Source: an uncultured archaeon
GTDB taxonomy: Archaea; Asgardarchaeota; Thorarchaeia; Thorarchaeales; Thorarchaeaceae
Direction: 5' to 3'
Assembly (NCBI GenBank): GCA_964648855.1
Contig: CAZYLT010000009.1
Coordinates: 96,968-108,968 of the forward strand
DNA length: 12,001 nucleotides
Below the pieces are notes generated by a model, which saw nothing but the letters and a program-made list of their open reading frames with translations, was not told where the DNA came from and ran no database searches. Below are positions 2,344 through 12,001 of the stretch, piece after piece. A program made the translations under genes and the position numbers. Every line of letters begins with the position of its first letter. The first letter of the stretch is position 1.

Positions 2344-4533
2344 ATGTCGGAAAATATCGAGAAGCTAAAAGTAGCTGCGGCTATGCCCAAAGACCAAGGC
2401 CGCGGAATTGTACGGCTGAATTCTCAAACAAGACGAGCACTAGACCTTAGGTCTGGAGATTATGTCCTTATCAAAGGCGAAAAGGAAACAGTGGCAATAG
2501 CATGGCCAGGATTACAGGAAGATGAAGCAATTGAAATGATTCGGATGGATGGATACATTCGAACAAATGCCGGAGCAAGGCTCGGCGAAATGGTTGAAGT
2601 GAGCAAGACCTCACCGCAGGAAGGACAGAGGATTGTTTTGGCACCAAGCCAACCAGTAAGATTTCAACCTGGCTTTGAGCAGTACATAAAGAAACAGCTG
2701 TTGAACAAGCCTCTAACCAGGGGCGATACTTTGGTTATTTCCTCAATTGGTCAAGGTCTAAAGTTCACAGTTGCACAAACAAATCCAGCAAAGCATGTTC
2801 GAGTTGCTCCCAGCACCAATCTCGAAATGATGACGCGACCGGTTAAGCCGGAAGAAATGACTGTTCCTCAGGTAACTTACGAGGACATTGGTGGCTTGAA
2901 CAAGGAGATTCAGAAAATTCGAGAAATAATCGAGCTCCCCATGAAATCTCCTGAGCTTTTCAAGCGATTGGGAATAGAACCACCAAAGGGTGTGTTACTC
3001 CATGGACCGCCAGGAACTGGGAAAACCCTGATTGCAAAAGCTGTTGCAAACGAGTCCGGAGCTAATTTCAAGGTCATAAATGGTCCTGAAATCATGTCAA
3101 AATTCTACGGAGAGTCTGAGAGCAAGCTTAGAGAAACCTTTGAGGAAGCCGAAAAGAATGCACCGAGTATCATCTTCATTGATGAACTGGATAGCATTGC
3201 TCCAAAAAGAGCTGAAGTAACTGGTGAGGTTGAAAGAAGAGTTGTAGCTCAGCTGCTTGCATTAATGGATGGTCTGGCTGGTAGAGGTCAGGTTATCGTT
3301 ATCGGTGCTACAAATCGAGTTGATGACGTTGATGAAGCTTTGAGAAGACCGGGCAGATTTGACCGTGAGATCGTAATCGGAGTGCCAGACAAAAAGGGAC
3401 GATTGGAAATTCTTCAGATTCATACCCGTGCAATGCCATTAGAAGAGGGATTAGATCTGGAGAAACTTGCTGCCACAACACATGGCTTTGTGGGTGCTGA
3501 TTTGGCATCACTTGCTCGGGAGGCTGCTATGCAAGCACTTCGTAGAGCTCTGCCTCATATAGATCCAGAAACTGGTGATATACCGCCAGATATCCTCAAT
3601 GACTTGTTTGTCACTCAAGAAGACTTTGATGTAGCGATGAATGACGTATCTCCTTCAGCACTTCGTGAAGTGTTTGTGGAGAAACCAAATATCCATTGGG
3701 ACGATGTTGGTGGTTTGCACAAAGTCAAGAGTCAGCTTAGAGAAGCTGTTGAGGCACCATTGAAACATCCTGAGGTCTTTCAAGAAATGGGAATCCGTGC
3801 CCCTAAGGGCGTTCTCTTGTTTGGTCCTCCTGGCACAGGCAAGACGCTACTAGCCAAGGCGGTTGCGACCGAGAGTGAAGCTAACTTCATCTCTATTCGC
3901 GGGCCGGAGATATTCAACAAATACGTTGGAGAATCTGAAAAGGCAGTTCGGGAGATTTTCAAGAAGGCTCGACAAACCGCACCTTGTGTCCTCTTCTTCG
4001 ATGAGATAGATGCTGTAATGAGTAGACGGGGCATGAGTGACAATACCGGTGTGAGTCAACGAATAGTCAATCAGTTTCTTGCTGAACTAGACGGTATGCA
4101 AGCCCTACAAAATGTGCTTGTTATTGGTGCGACGAACCGAGCTGATATTCTTGATCCTGCTATGTTACGCCCTGGGCGATTTGATGGGGTTGTCTTCGTA
4201 CCGGCACCAGACGAAGAAGCCCGACTCGAGATATTCGAAGTACACACCAGAGAAATGCCTTTGGCAGAGGATGTCAATCTGGAAGAATTAGCAGAGAAAA
4301 CCGATGGGTACTCTGGCGCTGATATCGAAGGTGTCTGCAGAGAGGCTGCTATGGCGGCAGTACGTGACGATTGGAAGTCGAAACCTGTGGAAATGGCACA
4401 TTTTGAGAGCGCATTGAAAGAGATTCGCCCAAGTATCTCAGATGAGGATGAGAAGCGTTACAAGAACCAAGCCGAACAGATATTGAGAAGAAACACGGGT
4501 GGCAAGACCGAACCACTTCCAGGCTACGTCTAA
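2344..4533 (+). CDS. cdc48: CDC48/p97/VAT family AAA+ ATPase
   Basis: N-domain ([21 protein letters not shown]) plus two AAA modules: Walker A GPPGTGKT at 3004 and 3823, Walker B IIFIDE and LFFDE, Arg fingers LRRPGRFD and LRPGRFD, pore loops KFYG and KYVG. SD GGAG at 2331-2334. Confidence 0.98.
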
Positions 4534-4634: not shown

Positions 4635-7130
4635 ATGAAAGAAAGATGGATTCTAAATATATGCCCCTTTTTACATTTTGACAATGCCAGGACTAATACC
4701 TACGAGCATAATGTCAGTATTGCAGCTTGGAACATAAAGAGCATTATAGACTATCTAGAAGTCGATTCGTCACACAAATTCAGCATCGGGCAGGTCACAC
4801 TCTTAGAGGGCTTCAAGAGGCTTTTTCCAAATTATTGGGATCAGTTGCATCAGCGCATACTCGAGGGAAGAGTAGAGATTGTAGGTGGTACATATGTTAC
4901 GCCTGATTTCATCATACCCGACGGGGAGTCTATAGTTCGTCAGTTTCTATACGGAATGAGGTTCTTCAAGGAAGAACTTGGAATCACCGTAAAAACAGGT
5001 TGGGCTTTGGATTCATACGGTCACAGCGCCCAGCTGCCTCAAATCCTGCGCCAATGTGGACTAGAATCGTATTATTTCTATCGTGGCATGCCATTTGAAG
5101 CACCGAGTGAATTCGTATGGAAAGGACCGGATGGTAGTAGAATAGACACAATCTGGTTAATGCAGAATTTCGATTCAGCTGAATGGCTCTCTGAGAATAC
5201 GTTGGAAGCTTTCAGCGTTCTTATGGATTTGGTTGAGAAAAGGAAAGAGGCCTCTGTTTCGAATAATCTATTTTTGCCAGTGGGAGGCGTACTTGTACCT
5301 CCCCTTCCGCATCTTGCTGATATTGTAAAGAAGTGGAATGATACGTTTCCAGATATGCGGTCAGTAATCATAACTCCTTTGGAATTCTCAGAAAAGCTAC
5401 AAATCTCACGTTCTCGTCACCCGGTGATATCAGGTGAACTGAATAGCGGGCGATTTTCAGCAATTGCCAGTGGAGGCCTCAGCAGTAGAATAAGTCTGAA
5501 AATGAAGAATCGGGAGCTTGAAACCCTTCTCTATCTCACCGAATTGTTCTTAGGCTTTGCAGGCAATTCTTCAAAGCGGAATGAACTTGATAATCTATGG
5601 AAGATGCTGCTTTTCAATCAGGACCACAATATAATCAGAGGAACATGTGCTGATACCCCTGCCAAACTAGCGGAAAAGAGATATGGCAAAGCAATTGGTG
5701 CCGCCAACGAGCTGCTCACGAAGACGATTTCATCCATTTCATCGAGCATGAGCGTCAAGAATGCGGTTTCTGGCACGGTTGTATTCAATCCCGTTTCTTG
5801 GAAACGAAGTGGTCTCGTTATCATTCCTTTGGATAGAGCCTTGGCTGATACGGGTAAATTTGAGGTGAGAGATCATAATGATGAGCCTGTTCCCTATCAA
5901 TTGCTAAATGCGGTCACGAAGACCGAATCGCCTCAGCTGGCGTTTGTTGCAGAAGATATGCCCGCCCTTGGCTATCGTCTTTTCAGGATAGTTGAAACCG
6001 AACAAGTACCGACTTGCAAAAGCAAGATACAGCACGCAAACACGTGGATTGAATCAGATAGATTTCTATTAGAATTCGATGATTTCAATGGGAGCCTTAT
6101 TCGGTTTAGGGATAAGAAATTGAACTATGAGCTCTTTAGAGATAGTGGTAGTTCTGTTGTTTTTGAAAGCGACCTGGGCGATCTGTATCGTTATTCGAAA
6201 TCTGAGCTTTCGAGTAAATCTAGCGAACTCAATACATTGCGGAACAAAGCAATCATAAAGGTTCTCGAATCAGGTCCGGTCTTAGTTCGGATTTCAGTAG
6301 AACAAGATATTGAAGGAACAAAAGTGATTCAGCAATACGCCTGCTATAACGGAATAGACAGAATAGACATACAAATCCAACTGGATTCGCAAGCACGGAA
6401 TAAGAGAGTGCGAGTCAAATACCCCTTGAATATCTTCTCTGATTCCATGATTGCTGGCGCTCAGTTTATGGCAAGAGATGTGAAAGCAGAACCGGACATG
6501 TCTGGCTATATTGAAGCCAATAAGGCGATCTCAGCCTTGGATTGGTTGTCGTGTATTGGACCTGATGCAAGCATGATTTTATCTGCAATAGGACTTCACG
6601 AGTTTGAATACTCCGATGGGAACCTAATGTGCACACTCTTGAGAAGCGTTGACCAACTATCTAGGGGAATTGATGATGAACCAATCCGAACCAGACAATC
6701 CTTAGAGATAGGTAAGCATCTATTCAGTCTTTCATTAATCCCTCATGAATCAAACGTCGGCAGGTCGATGATATTCCGATCTGCTGTCGAACACAGACTT
6801 CCACTTCTCGCTCACCCGGTACCGATAGGCGAACTACAAGATGCAGAGGGAAGTATATTGGGAATAGAAGGCGCAAACATGATAGTTTCTTGTTACAAGC
6901 CCGGCACTAAGGACAATGAAGTAATTGTTCGTTTATTCGAAACCGAAGGCAGAGCAGAAGCGACCAAACTAATCTTTTATCGAGATATAGAGCAAGCTGT
7001 ACTTGTTGACTTGTTGGAACAAGATGTTGGGCAGTTGCCTATTGATGGAAATTGCGTATCACTTACTACGGATCCCTTCGGAATTGTAACAGTGCGGATT
7101 AGATACTGTAAAAGAAACAACAATGTATAG
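4635..7130 (+). CDS. Glycoside hydrolase family 38 (alpha-mannosidase-like) protein, possibly with a degenerate active site
   Basis: HxD near the N-terminus (HFD), VGGTYVTPD..PDGESIVRQF, nucleophile motif GWALDSYGHSAQLPQIL, EFVWKGPDGS, middle-domain LFNQDHNIIRG, VVFNPVSWKRS, PALGY, TLLRSV and C-terminal IVRLFE. 831 aa, no signal peptide evident. Confidence 0.93.
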   Translation: MKERWILNICPFLHFDNARTNTYEHNVSIAAWNIKSIIDYLEVDSSHKFSIGQVTLLEGFKRLFPNYWDQLHQRILEGRVEIVGGTYVTPDFIIPDGESIVRQFLYGMRFFKEELGITVKTGWALDSYGHSAQLPQILRQCGLESYYFYRGMPFEAPSEFVWKGPDGSRIDTIWLMQNFDSAEWLSENTLEAFSVLMDLVEKRKEASVSNNLFLPVGGVLVPPLPHLADIVKKWNDTFPDMRSVIITPLEFSEKLQISRSRHPVISGELNSGRFSAIASGGLSSRISLKMKNRELETLLYLTELFLGFAGNSSKRNELDNLWKMLLFNQDHNIIRGTCADTPAKLAEKRYGKAIGAANELLTKTISSISSSMSVKNAVSGTVVFNPVSWKRSGLVIIPLDRALADTGKFEVRDHNDEPVPYQLLNAVTKTESPQLAFVAEDMPALGYRLFRIVETEQVPTCKSKIQHANTWIESDRFLLEFDDFNGSLIRFRDKKLNYELFRDSGSSVVFESDLGDLYRYSKSELSSKSSELNTLRNKAIIKVLESGPVLVRISVEQDIEGTKVIQQYACYNGIDRIDIQIQLDSQARNKRVRVKYPLNIFSDSMIAGAQFMARDVKAEPDMSGYIEANKAISALDWLSCIGPDASMILSAIGLHEFEYSDGNLMCTLLRSVDQLSRGIDDEPIRTRQSLEIGKHLFSLSLIPHESNVGRSMIFRSAVEHRLPLLAHPVPIGELQDAEGSILGIEGANMIVSCYKPGTKDNEVIVRLFETEGRAEATKLIFYRDIEQAVLVDLLEQDVGQLPIDGNCVSLTTDPFGIVTVRIRYCKRNNNV

Positions 7131-8982: not shown

Positions 8983-9071
8983 ACAATATTGTGACTTCTT
9001 TTCAGTAATCAAATACCTGGAGCCACAATCCTGATAATGCATAACAACAATGCTGTCCAAAAGGAGTAGAT

Positions 9072-10835
9072 TTGTCAATGTCAGAGAAAGATGTCCGTAG
9101 AATGATTGAAGAGGCCACTAAAGAAGCGATGAAACAGTCATTTACGGAGGCTGGGCAAAAATACATCGCAGCAGCACAAGCCTATGATGAAGAGGGAAAA
9201 TTCGATGAGGCTGATGATCTTCGTAGACAGGCAGCAGAGAATTTTGTCAAGGCTGCTGAGAAGTACAGGTCATCAAAGAGCTTCAAAATTGCAGCTCTAA
9301 ACATGTGTTACGCTGGAGACGTCTATTCTGAACTGGCATCGACCGATCAAGCTCTTTCTACCTATGAAACGGCTGCAGAGGACCTTTATTCTGCTTCATC
9401 AGAGCATCTACTGTGGGGTGAGGATGCGGAAACTAAGAAGGGCACTGCCTTAGCAATGGCCGCAAGCATGCTCTATCTCATGATTGGTGAGCAAGAGAAG
9501 GCATTCAAAAGCTCCCGTCGTTTTGCCGCTGAGCATGGATCCAAATTAAGGTTTCCTGGAGTTGTAAGGCTCAGTCAAATTCCTCAGATGATAGAGGCTG
9601 CAATCAACTCGGTTGATTTGGATGCTTTTTCAGACGCAGAACGCGCAGCAGTCACTGAACTAAAGGCTGCCCTCGCAAGTGCAAATGCATCTGAGTTCGC
9701 ACCCTATGTCGACAAAGGCATCGAAATGGTTCGCGAGATTCTTCGGGGAAAACTGAAGGTACCCAAAATCTCTGCTCATCTGGACTTGCCCATCGACATG
9801 ACGTTCACAGAGGAATTTCCGCTTCAGGCGAATATCATGAATAATGGCGATGGAAGTGCGTTAGACCTCTCCATTGAATGGTTCTTGGATGATGGTCTTG
9901 ATATCGTGTCTGGCAAAAAGACAATGAAGCTCGGAATTTTGAAGGCAGGAGATGGAATATCTTTAGAGTTGCATGCTCGTGCAACTGATGAGCTAATTGG
10001 AGTTAAGGAATATTCCATCATCTTACGTGGCTCTTACAAAGATAAACTCAACACCGAATACTCTTTGCAAGCAGGTCCTGGAACGTTGGTCCTAAAGGAT
10101 TTCAAAGAAACCGAGAAATTAATGCATGACATCGACCTAACAGAAGGACGCATGGGAATCCTTTCCACATCTCTTATTGAATCTCCATTTGAACAAGAAC
10201 CCCTTTCTCGGCTAATCAACCAAACTTCGAAGAGCTTGGCTGGGGCTCGAGAGGATGTGCAGGAAAAGAAACTGCCCATCGCAAAGGCAAAAATCGCCGT
10301 GGTTAACAACTTAGTCGACACGATTGACCAGATTATCGCCGATGAAGAACTCTCTCAAAATATCATAGAGCGGCGAGAAGCAGAAAAGAAAAACTATGCA
10401 GCTTCTGAGATTCAATCACTCCATGGTAAGATAGCCTCGCTTATCGAGAAGCATCAGGATTCAATTCTCTCTGAATCTGACCGGGCTCTTGAGCAGTGGG
10501 ACCGGAGAGTAGAGCAAAAGGAAGAATTGTCTAAGAAACTAAAACAATCAGTGGACCATGCATCAGAAATCATTCATGAACTTGATGGTATCTATGACGT
10601 TTTACCGACGGCCGCTTCTACTGATGATCCTGAACTAGCTAAAGAGCGGTCGAAGATACGTAATTCACTGGATTCCGCAAGGTCTGATTTATCTGCTCTT
10701 CAGACTCAGCTAGAAGAGGCTAGAATGCATTCAGCTCTAAAGGCTGATGAACGTCCCAGTACTGCACCAAGCATAGAGCTGGCTCTCAAGACTCTTCGTG
10801 CTTTGAGGGATGAGATTGAGAGCCTATTAGCATAG
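9072..10835 (+). CDS. Hypothetical multidomain protein: alpha-SNAP/TPR-like helical repeats + Ig-like (CARDB/BatD-type) beta-sandwich + C-terminal coiled coil
   Basis: SD AAGGAG at 9061-9066; start TTG 9072 or ATG 9078. Ala-rich paired helices (EAGQKYIAAAQAY, AAENFVKAAEKY, AALNMCYAGDVY, ALSTYETAAEDL). Ig-like signature LQANIMNNGDGSALDLSI...LGILKAGD...SYKD. E/K/Q/L-rich heptad region to the end. No signal peptide or clear TM. Confidence 0.75.
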   Translation: MSMSEKDVRRMIEEATKEAMKQSFTEAGQKYIAAAQAYDEEGKFDEADDLRRQAAENFVKAAEKYRSSKSFKIAALNMCYAGDVYSELASTDQALSTYETAAEDLYSASSEHLLWGEDAETKKGTALAMAASMLYLMIGEQEKAFKSSRRFAAEHGSKLRFPGVVRLSQIPQMIEAAINSVDLDAFSDAERAAVTELKAALASANASEFAPYVDKGIEMVREILRGKLKVPKISAHLDLPIDMTFTEEFPLQANIMNNGDGSALDLSIEWFLDDGLDIVSGKKTMKLGILKAGDGISLELHARATDELIGVKEYSIILRGSYKDKLNTEYSLQAGPGTLVLKDFKETEKLMHDIDLTEGRMGILSTSLIESPFEQEPLSRLINQTSKSLAGAREDVQEKKLPIAKAKIAVVNNLVDTIDQIIADEELSQNIIERREAEKKNYAASEIQSLHGKIASLIEKHQDSILSESDRALEQWDRRVEQKEELSKKLKQSVDHASEIIHELDGIYDVLPTAASTDDPELAKERSKIRNSLDSARSDLSALQTQLEEARMHSALKADERPSTAPSIELALKTLRALRDEIESLLA

Positions 10836-10852: not shown

Positions 10853-12001
10853 CTATTTCTCGTGCCCAGCCATGAATGTCTCCAGTCTATCCATTGCATT
10901 CTCTATCATTTGAGGCGGTGGCAGAAATACGCTTCTGAAATGTGCAGCCCCATAAGTCTTACAGAATCCAGACCCAGGAACAAAGACAACACCCGTTGAG
11001 TTCAGGACATCTAGGACAAAATCCTTGTCACTCTTCCAGCGATCCTTCAATTCGATTCTAGGCATGATGTAAAAGGCTGCTTGAGGCAGGCGAGTAGAAA
11101 TGGAATCAATTTCGTTTAGCCGTTTATAGATGAGGTCTCTTCTCTCTCGTAGTCTTGACATCATCTCTGGAATGTGTGAACCGTCGCTTCGAAGGGCAGC
11201 TGCTGCCGCGAATTGAGTGGGTGCATTGGTGCAAATCCTCACACGAGCTTGGCGAACCATTGCATCACGAAGTGACTCAAGCTCTTTGTCCTCGTCGTGG
11301 AAGTATGCATAGCCGACTCTCCAACCTGGGGCAAGATAAACCTTGGATATACCATTGAATCCAACAACAGGTACATCTCCTGCAGCTTTGACCATAGGCG
11401 TCTGGGGTGTATCGTATGTTAGCTGGTCATAAATCTCATCGCTGATCAGTGGCAATTCATACTCACCAGCTATGGCTGCAATCTCACTGAGTGTTTTTCT
11501 ATCATAAACTGCGCCAGTTGGATTATTCGGATTGATGACCAAAATGCCTCGGGTCTTTCCATTTATCTTACTCCGAATGTCATCTGTATCGGGTATCCAG
11601 TCGTTCTCTTCATCCGTTCGGTATGTGATGGGCTCTCCGCCGAAAAAGGTCACGTACGATATGTACGGAGGGTATGCTGGCCCAGGTACTAAGAATTCTG
11701 AACCCGGTTCAACCAAGGCTCCCATCAGGAACTGAATGGCCTCTGAAACGCCAGATGTGACAATAATCCTGTTTGGATCGACATCAATCCCATTCACTCG
11801 CTTCTCTTTGTCAGCAGCGGCTTTCTTTACCTCATCTTCTCCTTCAGATGGAGCGTAGCCATTATTTCGACTCTTCGTGGCTTCACATAGAGCATCTTTC
11901 ATGAACTCTGGAGTTTCCCAATCATACTTGTTCGGGTCTCCAATATTGAGGTAGAGTGGCTCCTTGTTCTCTCTCTTTTGGTATTGTTTTGCTGCAACGA
12001 C
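10853..12001 (-). CDS. PLP-dependent aminotransferase class I/II (alanine aminotransferase-like), 5' truncated by the window edge
   Basis: The frame stays open from 11902 to the window end (VVAAKQYQKRENKEPLYLNIGDPNKYDWETPEFMK...). Motifs LNIGDP, GYAPSEG, INPNNPTG, ISDEIY, PLP-lysine motif NGISKVYLAPGWRVGY, VPGSGF. Confidence 0.95.
   Translation of the reverse strand, partial: VVAAKQYQKRENKEPLYLNIGDPNKYDWETPEFMKDALCEATKSRNNGYAPSEGEDEVKKAAADKEKRVNGIDVDPNRIIVTSGVSEAIQFLMGALVEPGSEFLVPGPAYPPYISYVTFFGGEPITYRTDEENDWIPDTDDIRSKINGKTRGILVINPNNPTGAVYDRKTLSEIAAIAGEYELPLISDEIYDQLTYDTPQTPMVKAAGDVPVVGFNGISKVYLAPGWRVGYAYFHDEDKELESLRDAMVRQARVRICTNAPTQFAAAAALRSDGSHIPEMMSRLRERRDLIYKRLNEIDSISTRLPQAAFYIMPRIELKDRWKSDKDFVLDVLNSTGVVFVPGSGFCKTYGAAHFRSVFLPPPQMIENAMDRLETFMAGHEK

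Follow-up and report, generated by a model that had tools for sequence, protein, structure and literature searches.

SNAP proteins (alpha-, beta- and gamma-SNAP and yeast Sec17; Pfam PF14938; structures 1qqe, 9cru and 2ifu) are made of Ala-rich antiparallel helical hairpins, and their C-terminus carries a conserved penultimate Leu. This C-terminal end is required for engaging NSF (PMC2139964), and Sec17/alpha-SNAP is described as having an apolar membrane-inserting loop near the N-terminus (PMC8143792). A comparable repeat geometry is shared by generic TPR and other helical repeats, e.g., designed consensus TPR (CTPR), the SHNi-TPR of NASP/Hif1, the TPR-like domain of Gemin5 and HAP40. Here, we analyse a 585 amino acid (aa) protein from an uncultured thorarchaeon (assembly GCA_964648855.1) whose head resembles both groups. 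It is encoded on the + strand at positions 9078..10835 (stop codon included) of a 12,001-nucleotide (nt) stretch of contig CAZYLT010000009.1, in the following called the window. An earlier reading of the window from its letters alone (the sequence-only reading) had taken the protein for a SNAP-like, possible Cdc48 adaptor or for a tether- or coat-like scaffold. Asgard archaea are searched for forerunners of the eukaryotic trafficking machinery, and a SNAP ancestor working with Cdc48, which is encoded 4.5 kb upstream of this gene, would be notable; the evidence presented below does not support it.

We favour, with a probability of roughly 60%, that the gene encodes a soluble, non-enzymatic scaffold of an uncharacterised Asgard-restricted family that acts as a two-headed rod. 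Its C-terminal helices, i.e., a three-helix bundle and the heptad helices that follow, are predicted to hold two copies together as an elongated dimer with symmetry, to which either chain would contribute one TPR-like head and one Ig domain of the CARDB type. Most likely, the head would grip a short peptide or helix of a client or partner, and the two-headed rod may act as a bridge. Since the surfaces of head and Ig domain are strongly conserved, a single, specific and equally conserved partner is indicated. Neither SNAP orthology nor a role as Cdc48 adaptor is demonstrable for the protein.

Domain architecture

We built a full-length AlphaFold2 model on a 35-sequence alignment. Its mean predicted local distance difference test value (pLDDT) is 87.4 with every segment at or above 50, and it shows 11 helices at aa 3-227 (9084-9758), eight strands at aa 231-340 (9768-10097) and seven helices at aa 344-584 (10107-10829). 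The predicted template modelling score (pTM) is 0.48, such that it is uncertain how the domains are placed relative to each other. Based on the model, on conservation and on Pfam, PDB and fold comparisons, we delimit five parts on the + strand. An Ala-rich helical-repeat head of 11 helices (aa 1-227, 9078..9758; 17.5% Ala), which is TPR-like and loosely SNAP-like, is joined by a conserved L-K-V-P-K linker (aa 226-230, 9753..9767; P229 is invariant even across Asgard classes) to an eight-stranded Ig-like beta-sandwich of the CARDB/TRAP-beta/macroglobulin type (aa 231-340, 9768..10097). An antiparallel three-helix bundle (aa 344-421, 10107..10340) follows as the last part that is kept across Asgard classes, and the protein ends with long heptad-patterned helices (aa 423-465, 467-508, 518-549 and 564-584; 10344..10829), which vary between lineages and which, together with the bundle, provide the predicted dimer interface.

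This layout agrees well with the sequence-only reading, which had placed Ala-rich helical hairpins at 9072-9758, an Ig-like domain at about 9759-10097 (i.e., within a few codons of the modelled sandwich) and about 245 aa of heptad-rich helices at the C-terminus. The latter is also reflected in a crude heptad score of a/d positions, which is 0.40-0.47 across most of aa 341-540 vs 0.16-0.33 in the head. The highest 19-residue Kyte-Doolittle mean is 0.88, which implies neither a transmembrane segment nor a signal peptide and bears out the earlier remark on the missing export signal. All three parts of the protein carry a net acidic charge, and a Pfam scan of the protein reports no family at its cut-off. 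That is, the protein is soluble and cytosolic without an enzymatic or membrane signature.

Predicted homodimer of the C-terminal helices

The main new evidence is a homodimer prediction for two copies of aa 343-585, computed with the family alignment in three runs and accompanied by three controls. The interaction prediction score from aligned errors (ipSAE) is 0.68 in 3/3 runs, while the best control reaches 0.00. The predicted interface comprises 242-249 contacts with a run agreement of at least 97% and a partner pLDDT of 89. The same ipSAE mark is attained by 20/30 proteins solved as one-chain pairs and by 1/23 proteins solved as single chains, a comparison that is rough, since the prediction was based on our own alignment. 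Two-fold symmetry is evident from the contacts (441:441, 408:408, 404:404), which run along nearly all helices and show a spacing of 3-4 residues; interface columns are hydrophobic in 43% of the alignment cells vs 17% elsewhere (permutation p < 0.0002). The model thereby supports, rather than shows, binding between the C-terminal 243 aa of two chains, and the predicted homodimer fits a two-headed rod.

Several points weigh against the two-headed rod. The dimer is a matter of model confidence, and a side-by-side packing is readily obtained for amphipathic helices. In the monomer model, the C-terminal helices instead fold back on themselves, and the hydrophobic enrichment of the interface is equally expected for an intramolecular core. 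Furthermore, conservation across Asgard classes does not extend to the long C-terminal helices, so that the predicted mode of dimerization may be limited to Thorarchaeia. No ligand or partner emerges from the analysis. Among 44 non-redundant loci from 17 lineage labels, for which open reading frames (ORFs) were called crudely and clustered and some of which are cut by contig ends, no neighbour gene is common to all 17 labels.

With regard to described systems, the predicted arrangement is closest to dimeric coiled-coil tethers and rod-like adaptors such as golgins, i.e., it shares the elongated symmetric homodimer (predicted here), the heptad helices and the globular modules at one end. In contrast to golgin-type tethers, the rod measures only about 240 aa and is made of antiparallel hairpins instead of one long parallel coil, and neither a membrane anchor nor a GTPase-binding motif was identified in the protein. 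The comparison is functional only, i.e., it implies no homology. The earlier idea of a tether- or coat-like scaffold gains some support from the predicted C-terminal homodimer, but not from the fold comparisons: TRAPP and adaptin subunits are absent among the fold matches listed, and the COPI chain 5a1u_E is present only as a weak whole-model match (TM score 0.12).

Further fold matches concern the C-terminal part. The bundle (aa 344-421) superposes on the designed three-helix bundle 9rgv_A with Z 11.8 and a root-mean-square deviation (rmsd) of 1.8 Å over 82 aligned residues, and designed bundles, the myosin VI lever-arm extension and the Chlamydia protein CT398 are obtained for the C-terminus from the whole model only. 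Whole-model Foldseek rows for INTS7 (Integrator), COPI 5a1u_E, beta-arrestin, Sec63/Brr2, AlkC and SbsC were discarded; their TM scores of at most 0.17 at an rmsd of about 20 Å mark them as local one-domain matches rather than as a common architecture. A BBSome row (Z 12.5) has an rmsd of 58 Å and is meaningless.

Conservation and distribution of the family

A word-indexed search yields 217 relatives, the best 120 of which are full-length, 44-89% identical and from Thorarchaeota wherever labelled. The mean column identity is 73% for the head and 64% for the Ig domain, both with many invariant residues, while the tail is variable and lacks 33 residues in one subclade. Strongly conserved head motifs are W113, R164, I168-P169-Q170 and E188. 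A profile of the Thorarchaeia sequences matches 215/301 sampled Asgard genomes and 69/76 genomes of the window's own family; in the genome studied here, the family is present in one copy.

An exhaustive profile search among 1.8 billion representatives returns 70 matches below 1e-10, many of which are proteins of 437-700 aa that align in one stretch spanning head, Ig domain and bundle. All named clusters of relatives are Asgard (Baldr-, Odin-, Wukong-, Kari-, Hod-, Loki-, Heimdall- and Njordarchaeia). In a cross-class alignment of 33 sequences, identity to the query is 14-24% and the domain order is kept, with L103, P229, N255, G257 and D322 invariant across Asgard classes. Differences concern the C-terminus: the shortest forms (437-475 aa) stop shortly behind the three-helix bundle, and Heimdall-type forms carry an extra E/K-rich coil of about 300 aa. 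The next sequence matches beyond the family are multi-repeat TPR or CARDB proteins, e.g., of a Caldilineaceae bacterium, and the nearest are multi-TPR proteins of bacteria. The family is nearly universal in Thorarchaeia with diverged forms across other Asgard classes and, as far as names go, is apparently restricted to Asgard archaea. A wide non-Asgard distribution, which the sequence-only reading had named as an argument against a eukaryote-like protein, is not seen for the whole family, given that every named relative is Asgard.

Our literature search found no description of the family nor of an Asgard SNAP-like protein, and the main text of the 2026 structure-based Asgard surveys is without mention of SNAP, NSF or Sec17. 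The protein belongs to one of the better-conserved uncharacterised and apparently Asgard-only families. Its folds are known, its core of head, Ig domain and bundle is fixed, and it is predicted to form a dimeric rod. Identifying the partner would give a function to a protein that is present in most Asgard genomes.

Two side observations concern members and possible cousins of the family. A tubulin-family gene (PF00091) is preceded on the same strand, at a distance of about 400 bp, by the gene of a 660-aa Heimdall-type member whose tail is long and E/K-rich (L005:8001-11718). Furthermore, the genome of the window encodes a convergent pair of a 415-aa and a 273-aa protein (C3:79744-81816, partly in locus L048). 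Positions 328-386 of the former match the Ig profile of the family (E 6e-7) and its N-terminus is weakly TPR-like, and the latter scores 23.3 bits on Pfam SNAP. The pair probably corresponds to a distant paralogous 416-aa Thorarchaeota cluster of the ESM Atlas, in which SNAP is reported for 25% of the members.

The helical-repeat head

When modelled alone, the head reaches a pLDDT of 93.6 and a pTM of 0.88, and its 11 helices form a solenoid of stacked helix-turn-helix hairpins, i.e., the trait of the TPR superfamily is present. The relation of the head to SNAP and to generic TPR repeats was assessed with profiles and with fold comparisons.

SNAP is the highest-ranking named family for the head in Pfam, Foldseek and VIA-align, which is in line with the SNAP-like head put forward by the sequence-only reading. 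The scores themselves do not sustain this assignment. The Pfam SNAP model (gathering cut-off 25 bits, 282 profile positions) yields 15.8 bits for the whole protein, 18.3 bits for the head alone and 17.4 bits in the genome scan, all below the cut-off, and the match is confined to profile positions 33-86 (54/282) on aa 51-104. Among the relatives, 32/35 heads are matched at E values up to 1 (best 1.3e-8). On the other hand, a canonical 287-aa TPR protein of the same genome obtains 47.3 bits on SNAP along with 113.6 bits on TPR_12, and a 617-aa TPR protein 43.6 bits on SNAP. Within a control set of 14 genomes, all bacteria or non-Asgard archaea, four (B. subtilis, D. radiodurans, B. thetaiotaomicron and M. 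acetivorans) yield SNAP matches, and two of these four exceed the cut-off. Since the canonical TPR_12 protein scores that high and control genomes exceed the cut-off, the Pfam SNAP model is non-discriminating here. As a practical consequence, SNAP matches of Pfam in archaea should not be taken as evidence of SNAP homology.

The generic TPR models perform no better. TPR_7 is the best of them on the protein with 16.6 bits vs a cut-off of 27.9, such that neither SNAP nor any canonical TPR Pfam model attains its cut-off; TPR_12 matches 26/35 relatives (best 9.3e-6). That is, the head differs from generic TPR proteins in staying below all TPR cut-offs of Pfam, and its family-specific invariant motifs presumably lie outside the consensus TPR pattern. 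When aligned to this TPR_12 protein with hhalign, the head profile obtains a probability of 5.5%, and a close paralogy of the two was therefore discarded.

Fold and profile comparisons with solved structures do not separate SNAP from other helical repeats. In a search of the head profile against PDB sequences, CTPR (E 2.8e-4) ranks ahead of Sec17 (6.4e-3), which aligns to aa 7-73 only. Foldseek places Sec17/alpha-SNAP first (E 1.3e-4), yet with a TM score of 0.33 at an rmsd of about 12.7 Å. For VIA-align, in which helical repeats often reach Z 13 through arrangement alone, Sec17 obtains Z 11.2 at an rmsd of 11.8 Å vs Z 10.7 for designed repeats; gamma-SNAP follows with Z 10.8 (rmsd 3.7 Å, 140 residues) and NASP with Z 10.7, and the range for designed repeats, NASP, Gemin5 and HAP40 is Z 9-10.7.

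We also compared the head with SNAP for individual features. The loop between helices 1 and 2 reads K-Q-S-F-T-E-A and contains a single Phe, the F-T-E triplet is deleted in a 556-aa clade, and the alignment of relatives shows no conserved apolar N-terminal loop. In contrast to SNAP, whose C-terminal end is free, the head continues into the Ig domain, to which it is fused, and into the 240 aa of helices beyond. The protein itself ends with L-L-A, most relatives run about seven residues further, and that end is not conserved. The setting differs as well, i.e., the SNARE and synaptobrevin models (PF05739, PF00957) find no match with an E value of 0.01 or lower in the genome, which is 94.6% complete, although very divergent SNARE-like proteins could escape such a scan. 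With a partial match below the cut-off, a poor superposition and the SNAP-specific features missing, SNAP orthology is not supported; a divergent solenoid of the TPR-like type is the most fitting description of the head.

The Ig-like domain

CARDB, TRAP-beta and macroglobulin-type Ig domains (PF07705, PF05753; 8b5l_v, 4u48, 3idu) are typically extracellular, luminal or surface-exposed. The eight-stranded sandwich of the protein shares their fold. Foldseek aligns it to TRAP-beta 8b5l_v with E 1.5e-6 (TM score 0.60, rmsd 2.4 Å), the bacterial alpha-2-macroglobulin MG domain 4u48 reaches Z 12.0 (rmsd 2.5 Å, 107 aligned residues) and the Pyrococcus CARDB domain 3idu Z 9.8; domain III of HAP2/fusexin and pilins match as well. 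Among 21 relatives, all Pfam matches are below the cut-offs (CARDB 18/21, best 2.1e-5; TRAP_beta 15/21, best 1.1e-4; DUF11 11/21), and TRAP_beta yields 13 bits vs a cut-off of 22.4 on the protein itself. The neighbours of the domain in the ESM Atlas are CARDB/NPCBM_assoc clusters. What sets the sandwich apart from these domains is its place in the cytosol with a helical domain on either side, along with its Pfam scores below the cut-offs. The domain and its fold are as the sequence-only reading had them, while its eukaryote-like interpretation is not supported: apart from the cytosolic location, which is unusual, the sandwich is ordinary for the CARDB/macroglobulin type.

Alternative explanations and genomic context

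The recurrent neighbours of the gene are mostly of the housekeeping type (aminotransferase, ABC ATPase, geranylgeranyl reductase-like, PlsY, thiolase), with the exception of Roadblock. One Roadblock subfamily (121-143 aa, Robl_LC7 30.4 bits) is found at most four genes away in Thorarchaeia f1/f2, in f16 and in f4/Wukong, where f-numbers denote lineage labels and f1 is the family of the genome studied here. The genome holds only 12 Roadblock matches, and the chance of such proximity is estimated at about 3% per lineage. This recurrence in three or four lineages is suggestive of a scaffold or effector of a Roadblock/LC7 and small-GTPase module on membranes or the cytoskeleton, to which the gene labelled gelsolin-fold that lies directly upstream on the same strand in Thorarchaeia f1 would fit. 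We nevertheless regard such a role as unlikely. Position and orientation of the Roadblock gene vary among loci, and unrelated genes lie between it and the scaffold gene, namely an aminotransferase gene in Thorarchaeia and, in Wukong, a PadR gene and one for a 96-aa protein, which by eye we take to be ribosomal protein eS26. In addition, Roadblock is absent from the loci of f5, f14, f22, f27, f15 and others, and the lineages are related, so that the counts are not independent. The gelsolin-fold gene was discarded as a conserved partner, being directly upstream in Thorarchaeia f1 only.

Roadblock-bearing loci in our sample are L042, L044, L040, L041, L045, L013, L031, L032, L029, L030 and L004. 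The f2 locus further contains an 86-aa gene for a hydrophobic protein with a poly-Pro tail. Elsewhere in the genome of the window (C12:30500-36600; L046:2514-8594), the 287-aa TPR_12 protein is encoded between a 238-aa Ras-like small GTPase and a 1286-aa Peptidase_C25-domain protein on the same strand, on which a Roadblock/LC7 gene (75.6 bits) comes next. This cluster is a possible GTPase-Roadblock-TPR module.

A TPR-like head might also clamp C-terminal peptides of chaperones or clients as do Hop/Sti1, SGT and Get4-type proteins, in which case the protein would be a co-chaperone of an Hsp20/Cdc48 proteostasis cluster. Sti1 TPR2AB, the FKBP52 TPR domain, Get4/TRC35 and PCI subunits of the proteasome lid are indeed among the fold matches with Z or E values similar to SNAP, and Cdc48 and a putative hsp20-like ORF are encoded upstream in the same orientation in Thorarchaeia. 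We judge this quite improbable, since these fold matches tie with many unrelated helical repeats, canonical TPR models stay below their cut-offs as reported above, and the linkage to Cdc48 and the hsp20-like ORF is confined to Thorarchaeia.

A more far-reaching scenario, which we hold to be decidedly improbable, is an Asgard invention predating SNAP. The protein would then be a dimeric two-headed adaptor with a TPR head that is sister to the SNAP repeat, and it would link membranes or the cytoskeleton to a conserved partner, be it an AAA+ ATPase like Cdc48 or a module of Roadblock and small GTPase. If true, trafficking adaptors or tethers of eukaryotes would have a prokaryotic forerunner in this protein.

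By analogy with alpha-SNAP and NSF, the head could dock on the N-domain of Cdc48 and deliver substrates to it, as the sequence-only reading had considered. Beside the top rank of SNAP/Sec17 among named families in several weak searches, this draws on gene order: the same-strand run Cdc48-(GH38)-~295 aa-91 aa-96 aa-scaffold gene is kept in 7/7 loci of Thorarchaeia f1. Here, three or four genes intervene between Cdc48 and the scaffold gene, and GH38 is missing from two of the seven loci (L041, L043), such that the adjacency of Cdc48 and GH38 is not fixed. In the 37 loci from other sampled lineages, some of them truncated by contig ends, neither Cdc48 nor another AAA+ relative (counted at E below 1e-5) is found within about 8 kb (0/37). 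Given that Cdc48 is near in f1 loci only and with intervening genes, the linkage is a synteny block of Thorarchaeia and not a conserved pairing. The protein itself also lacks the known means of binding Cdc48. Regular-expression scans for VIM, VBM, SHP and FPR motifs find none in it, and the Pfam scan reports no UBX, PUB/PUL or other Cdc48-binding domain. Together with the differences to SNAP listed above, i.e., a partial match with a score below the cut-off and surpassed by that of a canonical TPR protein, a profile search in which CTPR outranks Sec17, a poor Sec17 superposition, a head whose end is fused, and a genome without SNARE/synaptobrevin match, this makes a SNAP-like adaptor of Cdc48 very unlikely. 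A second Cdc48 paralogue is encoded elsewhere in the genome (C2:206616-206864 on the - strand, CDC48_N 102.5 bits, 731-aa frame).

Finally, an ESCRT-III-binding protein, in which the first three helices of the head (aa 1-67, 9078-9278) recognise MIM motifs as an MIT-like domain, is highly improbable, since designed three-helix bundles fit this region as well as MIT domains do (8upa_C, Z 8.7, rmsd 1.6 Å), Pfam MIT (PF04212) yields 11.9 bits on the protein vs a 30-bit cut-off, the three helices run on into the longer solenoid instead of forming a free bundle, and no ESCRT gene is near any sampled locus. The resemblance itself is seen for several MIT domains superposed on aa 1-67 (range Z 8-10, rmsd 1.6-2.6 Å), namely katanin p60N (Z 10.1, rmsd 1.6 Å, 67 aligned residues), Vps4 MIT (Z 8.2, rmsd 2.3 Å), MITD1, calpain-7 and Vta1. 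It is also reflected in Pfam MIT matches of 22/35 relatives at E up to 1 (best 4.1e-4) and in the Sulfolobus Vps4-like MIT chain 2w2u (E 0.12).

Gene structure and flanking genes

The protein is encoded by a single ORF that extends from a TTG at 9072 to 10835 on the + strand. Starting at this TTG would result in 587 aa, while the ATG at 9078, two codons further, gives a 585-aa protein that opens with M-S-E. The residue of this ATG is the first one in 34/34 aligned homologues, which makes a translation start at 9078 likelier than one at 9072. A putative Shine-Dalgarno-like GGAG motif is read at 9063..9066 (+), which leaves a distance of 11 nt to the ATG and of 5 nt to the TTG.

Upstream, the same strand encodes in this order an FAD oxidoreductase, a 236-aa ORF, Cdc48 (2344-4533), the GH38 mannosidase (4635-7130, +; between Cdc48 and the gene of about 295 aa, here a 308-aa ORF), a small ORF and the 96-aa gene labelled gelsolin-fold. 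Downstream, a convergent aminotransferase gene (10853-12001, -) ends 18 nt from the scaffold gene and is cut by the contig end, which is also the end of the window. The Roadblock gene that follows the aminotransferase in other Thorarchaeia would lie beyond this contig end and hence outside the view of this assembly.

In three related Thorarchaeia genomes, the family match reads through an in-frame TAG (G224:C37:6558-8321, G164:C30:26895-28652 and G161:C288:7670-9433), which could mean that the protein is shorter at its C-terminus, that the gene is broken or that the sequence contains an error.

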